Virus record (IMG/VR): IMGVR_UViG_2706794695_000003
Direction: 5' to 3' (one strand)
Origin: a virus
Lineage: Duplodnaviria; Heunggongvirae; Uroviricota; Caudoviricetes
Length of the DNA: 9,386 nucleotides
Part shown: piece after piece, positions 5,256 through 5,566 of the stretch
Numbering within the stretch: position 1 is the first letter of the stretch
Layout: each line of letters starts with the position of its first letter
Notes under the pieces: model-generated
What the model saw: the letters and a program-made list of their open reading frames with translations, nothing else
Databases searched by the model: none
Told to the model about the DNA's origin: nothing
Made by a program: the position numbers and the translations under genes

Positions 5256-5330
5256 TGGAGCGGGCAGCGGGAATCGAACCCGCATCATCAGCTTGGAAGG
5301 CTGAGGTAATAGCCATTATACGATGCCCGC
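5256..5330 (-). tRNA. tRNA-Gly (anticodon UCC)
   Basis: Hand-folded 75-nt cloverleaf on the minus strand: acceptor GCGGGCA/TGCCCGC, anticodon stem TCAGC/GCTGA, loop CTTCCAA, T-arm GCGGG-TTCGATT-CCCGC, 3' CCA encoded. Resembles host and T4 tRNA-Gly(UCC) from memory. Confidence 0.85.
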
Positions 5331-5333
5331 ATA

Positions 5334-5409
5334 TGGTGCCGACTACCGGAATCGAACTGGTGACCTACTGATTACAAGTCAGTTGCTCTGCCTGCTGAGC
5401 TAAGTCGGC
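5334..5409 (-). tRNA. tRNA-Thr (anticodon UGU)
   Basis: 76-nt cloverleaf: acceptor GCCGACT/AGTCGGC, D-stem GCTC/GAGC, anticodon stem ACTGA/TCAGT, loop CTTGTAA, T-loop TTCGATT, CCA encoded. The T-stem has one A-C mismatch. Confidence 0.7.
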
Positions 5410-5411
5410 GC

Positions 5412-5488
5412 TGGCCCACCACCGAGGACTCGAACCTCGCACCGTCAACTTAGAAGGTTGATGCTCTATCCGGATGAGCTAGTGGTGG
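5412..5488 (-). tRNA. tRNA-Arg (anticodon UCU)
   Basis: 77-nt cloverleaf: acceptor CCACCAC/GTGGTGG (unusual C1-G72), D-stem GCTC/GAGC, anticodon stem TCAAC/GTTGA, loop CTTCTAA, T-arm CGAGG-TTCGAGT-CCTCG, CCA encoded. Confidence 0.75.
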
Positions 5489-5489
5489 T

Positions 5490-5566
5490 TGGTGGCCCTT
5501 GCTGGACTTGAACCAGCGACCTGGCGATTATGAGTCGCTCGCTCTGACCAACTGAGCTAAAGGGCC
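5490..5566 (-). tRNA. tRNA with anticodon CAU; likely Ile2 (lysidine, ileX/ileZ-like) rather than Met
   Basis: 77-nt cloverleaf: acceptor GGCCCTT/AAGGGCC, D-arm GCTC-AGTTGGTCA-GAGC, anticodon loop CTCATAA, T-arm GCTGG-TTCAAGT-CCAGC, CCA encoded. Overall close to my recollection of E. coli ileX. Confidence 0.75.

Follow-up and report, generated by a model that had tools for sequence, protein, structure and literature searches.

The locus considered here raises the question of why a prophage should keep a tight cluster of tRNA genes between its late regulator and its lysis genes. The cluster lies in a 9,386-nucleotide (nt) stretch of IMG/VR virus record IMGVR_UViG_2706794695_000003, referred to below as the window, where an initial annotation made from the sequence alone had proposed four closely packed tRNA genes for rare codons at positions 5256-5566. 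Transfer RNA genes downstream of the Q gene have been familiar in lambdoid prophages since the Stx-phage genomes. The present analysis identifies the cluster as a real, intact four-tRNA set, of an ordinary module kind already annotated in Escherichia coli and Shigella prophages, and suggests that it is probably a functional polycistronic operon supplying scarce tRNAs, namely four minor decoders.

In the whole window ARAGORN called exactly four tRNA genes; all belong to the cluster and are encoded on the minus strand. Their order and isotypes are those originally proposed, and Rfam agrees. In the direction of transcription they are:

5490-5566, minus strand: tRNA-Ile2(CAU), called Met/Ile(cat) by ARAGORN; Rfam RF00005, 70.5 bits; CCA encoded.
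5412-5488, minus strand: tRNA-Arg(UCU), reading AGA/AGG, called "slot 2" of the module below; ARAGORN; Rfam RF00005, 56.4 bits; CCA encoded.
5334-5409, minus strand: tRNA-Thr(UGU), reading ACA/ACG; ARAGORN; Rfam RF00005, 69.8 bits; CCA encoded.
5256-5330, minus strand: tRNA-Gly(UCC), reading GGA/GGG; ARAGORN; Rfam RF00005, 64.9 bits; CCA encoded.

All four scores exceed the RF00005 gathering score of 29 and correspond to E-values between 1e-10 and 1e-14, which places the genes among bacterial tRNA genes. The initial annotation had allowed that the Thr or Arg gene might score as a pseudogene; both are well above the gathering score, and identical copies in RefSeq E. coli genomes are annotated by NCBI as tRNA-Ile, tRNA-Arg, tRNA-Thr and tRNA-Gly without a pseudogene flag. 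Structure was judged by the covariance model and by pair counts in place of minimum free energy folds, which often did not return the cloverleaf for single tRNAs (Ile2, Thr). The genes are separated, as read on the coding strand, by A, GC and TAT (1, 2 and 3 nt). Since these spacers are too short to hold a promoter, the four tRNAs would be processed from a single precursor, as had been surmised.

The first two genes are clearly, on the evidence of their sequences, of phage lineage and not host copies. The CAU tRNA matches ileZ of Stx phages at 74 of 77 positions and ileX of E. coli K-12 at 69, as against 52 of 77 for the elongator metT and 45 of 77 for the initiator metZ, in agreement with its earlier assignment to Ile. 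Its acceptor stem, GGCCCUU/AAGGGCC, holds C4-G69 and C5-G68, pairs that reportedly let TilS tell Ile2 from Met. The body thus appears to be of the Ile2 type, not the Met type, and the CAU anticodon is expected to be converted to lysidine-AU and then to read AUA. The anticodon stem has an A27-C43 mismatch.

The tRNA in slot 2 resembles argN of Stx phages (64 of 77 positions) and the "Lys" tRNAs found at the same place in sister clusters (65 of 77), and is alike with host argU at only 54-58 positions. The anticodon of argN is UCG, that of the window tRNA UCU. It is carried in a 7-nt loop, CUUCUAA, and accompanied by the D-loop AUCCGGAUA (with A20) and the discriminator G73. Recognition by ArgRS depends on A20 and a purine at position 73, together with the anticodon UCU in a 7-nt loop, and the window tRNA has all of these. 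A C1-G72 acceptor pair, flagged earlier as an oddity of this gene, is indeed present; it does not vary among 10 distinct members of the slot-2 lineage, to which argN belongs. In the alignment of these 10 members, 97.1% of cells are paired, compared with 29-55% in controls with slid partners, and compensatory changes are found at four pairs. Given this invariance and these changes, C1-G72 is to be seen as a selected trait of the lineage, with no sign of decay.

The other two genes are of host type. The tRNA-Gly is identical to glyT of E. coli K-12 over all 75 positions; the tRNA-Thr is identical to thrU at 74 of 76, the sole differences being two U-to-C changes in the D-loop. The A-C mismatch that had also been singled out, A52-C62 in the T-stem of tRNA-Thr, is confirmed; as host thrU shares it, it is no peculiarity of the phage copy. 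Thus both reported oddities exist, but neither is a defect. Taken together, the pairing of slot 2, the near-identity of Thr and Gly to essential host genes and the RefSeq annotation indicate that the stems are maintained by selection.

The likeness of Thr and Gly to host genes brings up the explanation that the cluster is passive baggage, that is, host tRNA genes gained by illegitimate recombination and serving no selected function. The initial annotation had itself named a set of four identical host copies, passively acquired, as one outcome that would undo its proposal. Half of the set fits this description, Gly being identical to glyT and Thr nearly so to thrU, whereas Ile2 and Arg are not host copies. 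Traces of a capture of the host operon were sought around Thr and Gly and no host flanks were found: identity begins at +1 and ends at the CCA. In the host thrU-tyrU-glyT-thrT operon, moreover, 209 nt that include tyrU separate thrU from glyT, whereas in the window the Thr-Gly spacer is 3 nt, tyrU and thrT are absent, and flanks and promoter are unrelated. The compensatory stem changes in slot 2, and the conservation of the module and its promoter over many backbones and genera described below, argue further against this explanation, which is disfavoured and appears very improbable.

The setting of the cluster corresponds to that of ileZ-argN-argO in Stx phages (933W, Stx2a phages, phiP27), as had been suggested together with the notion of a different and larger set. 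In both cases the tRNA genes follow Q and precede the late or lysis genes, with which they share the strand. The first tRNAs are homologous, the second share the C1-G72 scaffold, and the 1-nt spacing after the first tRNA is common to both, as are about 17 nt upstream that include a TATTAT box. The sets are not the same three tRNAs: the window has no argO homologue (46 of 77 positions) and adds the two host-type tRNAs, Thr(UGU) and Gly(UCC). Nor are its tRNAs followed by stx genes; their place is taken by a non-coding stretch of about 680 nt and a P21-type holin. A literature search, limited in reach, returned nothing relevant on ileZ/argN/argO and only unrelated papers on this four-tRNA set in prophages.

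Relatives of the cluster are widespread. Nine complete E. coli genomes contain the exact 311-nt sequence (100% identity), some of them twice, and Ile2-X-Thr-Gly clusters (at least 80% query coverage) are found in 603 of 5,426 complete E. coli genomes, about one in nine, some of which have two or three copies in different prophages. The Thr-TAT-Gly junction is present in at least 120 IMG/VR contigs, as well as in reference genomes of E. coli, Shigella flexneri, Citrobacter braakii and Enterobacter hormaechei. All backbones that were inspected have the order Q (or a DUF1133 protein in its place), tRNAs, holin, with stx genes in place of the holin in Stx phages. Among the loci retrieved, slot 2 is a Lys(UUU) in at least 52 and an Arg(UCU) in at least 35, the Lys form being the commoner. 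This Lys form is represented in three sequenced phage isolates (PhiR47_1, vB_EcoM-606R7 and vB_EcoS-689R5); the Arg version was found in no phage isolate record. The Lys-type clusters of E. coli prophages and of these isolates are about 94% identical to that of the window and agree with it in the four slots, the 1/2/3-nt spacers and the promoter motif. They differ in slot 2, where they have UUU in the loop CCUUUAA and U73, and the window UCU and G73. An Ile2-Lys pair is carried by the PPompW prophages. Judging from these sequence comparisons, the best explanation is that the cluster is a portable module recombining among lambdoid prophages of Escherichia, Shigella and related enterobacteria.

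The module can also be shorter. In 20 of the loci listed (L009, L010, L026, L036, L040, L047, L063 and others) only Thr and Gly are found, Ile2 and slot 2 being both absent. Most of the Thr-Gly-only loci whose upstream region was examined have a TATTAT box and a hairpin of about 60 nt (GGTTCCGAGGG...CCCGAGGAACC) in the place of Ile2 and slot 2; this hairpin may be another structured RNA or a decayed tRNA. In another locus, L087, the first tRNA is an Ile(UAU).

Two signals upstream of the cluster bear on its expression:

5576-5604, minus strand: candidate sigma-70 promoter of the tRNA unit, TTGCAG (5604-5599), 17-nt spacer, TATTAT (5581-5576).
5659-5680, minus strand: intrinsic terminator between the ORF6N gene described below and the tRNA promoter, found by scan as an 8-bp stem followed by a T-run.

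The TATTAT box is separated from G1 of tRNA-Ile2 by 9 nt (tctgcctcc), a C-rich segment that we take to resemble the discriminator of stable-RNA promoters. A consensus scan, which reads the site as TTTGCA-18-TATTAT, found four sites against 2.9 expected and is unremarkable by itself. Another match from the scans, within the cluster (TCGGCA-16-TATAAT, 5342-5315), was set aside as due to chance: it consists of the Thr 3' end and the D-arm of glyT and is also present in the host gene. The case for the promoter comes from the relatives. When 35 unique upstream sequences from 95 loci were sorted into 12 classes less than 85% identical to one another, TTGC(A/G)N - 17 nt - TAT(T/C)AT - 9 nt - tRNA was found at a fixed position in 10 of the 12, while spacer and flanks diverged; the other two classes have a pair of the TTGAAA/TATTAT type about 32 nt further upstream. 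This is the pattern of conservation of a real promoter, and we infer that the site functions as one. With a conserved promoter of its own, the cluster is probably more than a passenger of the late transcript.

Part of the terminator at 5659-5680 belongs to a portable segment common to E. coli prophages of other backbones, at 96-100% identity. A total of 172 nt upstream of tRNA-Ile2 (compare window 5651-5738, minus strand) moves with the tRNAs at this level of identity, and in the E. coli prophages concerned the gene directly before it codes for a DUF1133 protein or for a Q other than that of the window. In the relative L107 precisely the terminator hairpin is missing.

On the downstream side two runs of N interrupt the window, at 4426-4700 (275 N) and 4964-5192 (229 N). 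They were filled with IMG/VR contig L099, which matches the window at 100% identity on either side of the runs and in which they measure 620 and 659 nt. As the runs do not preserve length, window coordinates across them are not real distances. They hide most of the endolysin gene, the starts of Rz and of the holin gene, and most of a terminator-bearing non-coding stretch. In L099, about 680 nt devoid of a convincing open reading frame separate tRNA-Gly from the start of the holin gene, and a strong terminator (4720-4746) lies 40 nt before the ATG of the 71-amino-acid P21-type holin. When the 680-nt stretch in L099 was searched against Rfam at a permissive threshold, only the tRNAs and sub-threshold matches were returned. 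The earlier description of the cluster as lying "ahead of the lysis genes" is correct in that it stands between Q and holin/endolysin/Rz, but passes over this stretch and its strong terminator.

With terminators on both sides, the tRNA unit could be transcribed in a lysogen without touching the lysis genes. This opens the way to an explanation by lysogenic conversion, in which the unit is expressed in the lysogen and chiefly helps the host to translate horizontally acquired genes rich in rare codons, the host benefit keeping the prophage under positive selection. The conserved candidate sigma-70 promoter would be independent of Q, the terminators would isolate the unit from the lysis genes, and some genomes hold two or three copies in different prophages, all of which such a benefit would accommodate. 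The invariable position between Q and the lysis genes, however, points to a role in lytic growth. As the chief explanation lysogenic conversion seems quite unlikely, while being compatible with tRNA supply to the phage and not exclusive of it.

The proposal that the cluster serves rare codons was examined by comparing codon use in 13 window genes unmasked via L099 (2,735 codons) with that in 39 annotated K-12 core genes (14,652 codons). All of the following served codons are enriched in the prophage: AUA (2.3-fold, p = 6.5e-3), AGA (6.7-fold, p = 2e-6), AGG (4.7-fold, p = 4.7e-3), ACA (3.0-fold, p = 1e-7), GGA (1.5-fold, p = 4.2e-2) and GGG (2.0-fold, p = 5.1e-5). In the open reading frames flanking clusters (crude sets), AGA plus AGG reach 16.1 per 1000 next to Arg-type clusters and 11.9 per 1000 next to Lys-type ones. 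Codon compensation is also the explanation given for Stx-phage tRNAs in a passage of PMC7946995 that cites Bailly-Bechet 2007. The supply of scarce tRNAs is favoured here because the same position is kept in every backbone, the promoter motif is conserved, the codons served are enriched and the module is widely retained.

Several observations weigh against it. The enrichment is unspecific, as codons with no tRNA in the cluster are equally enriched: CGG (4.1-fold, p = 7.7e-10), CGA (2.5-fold, p = 1.4e-3), CCC (2.2-fold, p = 1.9e-3) and UGU (2.8-fold, p = 2.1e-5). That of GGA is weak. AUA is rarer in late genes (4.6 per 1000) than in early ones (10.0 per 1000), and ACA is likewise used more in early than in late genes. 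The test itself comprises some 2,700 prophage codons and takes a single 50-kb housekeeping region as host reference. Finally, slot 2 of the sister clusters is a Lys(UUU), reader of the commonest Lys codon; since AAA is not rare, supply for rare codons cannot explain its presence. The claim of rare-codon service is thus upheld for demand, which is real for the four tRNAs, but the demand reflects a generally relaxed codon bias rather than a tailored match.

The genes, their integrity, relationships and synteny, the conserved promoter motif and the codon enrichment are observed directly, and can be joined in a model that proposes promoter activity, a processing route, modification, charging and a benefit. 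In the lysogen, transcription would start at the unit's own sigma-70 promoter 9 nt upstream of tRNA-Ile2 and be confined by the flanking terminators. Once the prophage is induced, RNA polymerase modified by Q would set out from the promoter just past Q and read through the terminators, the tRNAs, holin, endolysin and Rz. RNase P would cut every tRNA 5' end. At the 3' ends, exonucleolytic trimming of 1-3 nt should be enough, with no endonuclease cut in the spacers, because CCA is encoded and the spacers are that short; some E. coli tRNA operons with equally tight spacing are known to be processed in this way, by RNase P and 3' exonucleases. Modification and charging would then fall to host enzymes (TilS for Ile2, the mnm5U and cmo5U pathways, t6A37, four host synthetases). 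The cell would gain further copies of four decoders, each with only one or two genes in the host, for AUA, AGA/AGG, ACA/ACG and GGA/GGG, codons 1.5- to 6.7-fold commoner in the prophage than in host core genes. Thr and Gly, as host-type decoders (Gly identical, Thr with an identical anticodon arm), can only add dosage.

The element carrying this putative operon is, to judge from its sequence, a phiP27-like lambdoid prophage. Its closest phage isolate is the Stx2e phage phiP27, which matches 57% of the window at 87.6% identity, and among complete E. coli genomes coverage of the window stays at or below 60%. All window genes are on the minus strand. A DnaB-type helicase gene, RusA and the Q antiterminator are followed by a promoter-like site, an isrK-type RNA with a terminator, C4-type and Xcc1-type RNAs, an ORF6N antirepressor-type gene, the intrinsic terminator and the four tRNAs; then come holin, endolysin, Rz/Rz1, an HNH endonuclease, the small and large terminase subunits and portal. 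The features closest to the cluster are:

6800-7207, minus strand: late antiterminator Q (Pfam PF06530, Phage_antitermQ, E = 2.7e-52).
6683-6795, minus strand: promoter-like site TTGACC-18-TATATT (6795-6766), isrK-type RNA (Rfam isrK, 77.5 bits) and terminator (6704-6688), the site and terminator being found by scans.
5756-6319, minus strand: ORF6N-domain (antirepressor-type) gene between Q and the tRNAs (Pfam PF10543, ORF6N, E = 8.8e-21).
4177-4963, minus strand: lysis cassette, partly masked by N, with the C-terminal part of the holin at 4790-4963, the endolysin start at 4701-4790 and Rz/Rz1 at 4177-4425.

The segment at 6683-6795 is likely to be the Q-dependent late promoter/terminator pair, to judge from its place directly after Q. 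In the twin contig L099 the lysis genes code for a P21-type holin (PF04971), a phage lysozyme (PF00959) and Rz (PF03245). Between 6357 and 6795 on the minus strand, Rfam matches comprise isrK (77.5 bits), a C4 antisense RNA (71 bits), the c4 a1/b1 target (50.1 bits) and sRNA-Xcc1 (77.4 bits). This set of RNAs resembles the P1 immI or Gifsy-1 isrK-anrP module, here placed within the late-control region.

A different role for the cluster is suggested by recent work on abortive infection. P2 Old aborts lambda by cleaving host tRNA-Thr(UGU) in its anticodon stem, where paired CNG motifs are cut behind the C; phage variants of this tRNA, in which the motif is altered and the stem shortened, rescue from it (PMC12445682). 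PARIS AriB cleaves Lys(UUU), Thr(UGU) and Asn(GUU) at UAAUC|A (PMC12409363), and the host tRNAs cut by retron Eco2 include those for Gly and Arg, the Arg isoacceptor not being given (PMC12916289). The cluster could accordingly serve to replace host tRNAs that such nucleases destroy during the development of a lambdoid phage, in which case the phage-lineage Arg and Ile2, with stems differing from those of the host isoacceptors, would escape cleavage.

For the copy in the window the evidence is divided. The window does encode a lambdoid-phage Thr(UGU), the isoacceptor cut by P2 Old (PMC12445682); the Arg tRNA departs widely from argU and Ile2 has its A27-C43 mismatch. The Thr tRNA, however, has exactly the anticodon arm of host thrU (CUG at 28-30, CAG at 40-42, five base pairs, UAAUCA), and Gly is indistinguishable from glyT. 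Both the Thr (CUG 28-30/CAG 40-42) and the Gly (CAG 28-30/CUG 40-42) have the paired CNG motif with A37 that defines P2-OLD substrates, a combination lacking in Ile2 and Arg. As both keep motif and A37, the window Thr and Gly should be as vulnerable as the host copies. The altered CNG motif and shortened stem of anti-P2-OLD tRNA-Thr (PMC12445682) are not seen in the window Thr, and in contrast to the anti-PARIS tRNAs (PMC12409363) the window set includes no Lys or Asn tRNA and a Thr that keeps UAAUCA. Overexpression of host ThrU, moreover, protects little or not at all against OLD (PMC12445682), and no report was found that singles out Arg(UCU) or Ile2 as a main target of a defence nuclease. 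Only Arg and Ile2 of the window set could be escape variants.

Nuclease-resistant phage tRNAs comprise the tRNA-Lys/Thr/Asn of T5, which act against PARIS, and the phage tRNA-Thr(UGU) that act against P2-OLD. Among the relatives, changes comparable to the altered CNG motif and shortened stem of the tRNA-Thr(UGU) are found in a few members only. The slot-2 Lys(UUU) of L006, L013, L021 and others combines the C1-G72 scaffold and the loop CCUUUAA, with C33 for the near-universal U33, with the discriminator U73; its 3' stem, GUUGA, lacks the AriB site. In one E. coli copy a thrU-type body carries a UUU anticodon: this is slot 3 of L143 (1657-1732; E. coli 720632, NZ_CP025842.1), which reads UUU by G35U, also differs from thrU at position 26, and is annotated as tRNA-Lys. 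It is a second route to Lys(UUU) in the module. Among 119 loci listed, Thr is identical to thrU in 80, has the two D-loop changes of the window in 30 and carries G42U + U43C in five (L002 4329-4404, from E. coli VL40; L117, L103, L033 and L131). The latter double change unpairs 27-43 and 28-42, turns the 3' CAG into CAU and shortens the anticodon stem, and is of the class reported for OLD resistance (PMC12445682); the host-identical form is nonetheless the majority.

Slot 2 shows further variation. In about a dozen of the loci listed (L019, L044, L050, L057, L069, L073, L081, L085, L087, L088, L100, L104 and L105) its anticodon loop has 5-6 nt, with acceptor, D and T arms kept. The loops read UAAAU, UUUAU, UUAAU, CCAGGU and CUUGGU, and ARAGORN interprets these tRNAs as Phe(AAA), a UUA suppressor, Leu(UAA) or as having no anticodon.

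Counter-defence is thus favoured by the variation in relatives and not by the window copy; as an account of the cluster it is possible, if unlikely. A broader version, in which the Ile2-X-Thr-Gly module is a counter-defence cassette made of a constant Thr(UGU)-Gly(UCC) core, an exchangeable slot 2 and its own promoter of the stable-RNA type, is more doubtful still. If it were true, a single C1-G72 scaffold would have been re-targeted by its anticodon (UCG, UCU, UUU and the odd 5-6-nt loops), and the Arg(UCU) of the window would answer a nuclease attacking host tRNA-Arg(UCU). Supply of scarce tRNAs remains the preferred account of the cluster.

Taken singly, the locus matters little, its kind being long known and the exact cluster already annotated in RefSeq. 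The lead worth following is the variability of slot 2 at the level of the family, which ranges from Arg(UCU) and Lys(UUU) to Arg(UCG) and aberrant loops. Because slot 2 varies in this way, and because P2 Old and PARIS have host Thr(UGU) and Lys(UUU) among their prime targets, the module offers a ready natural series in which codon supply can be set against defence evasion as the role of tRNAs in temperate phages.

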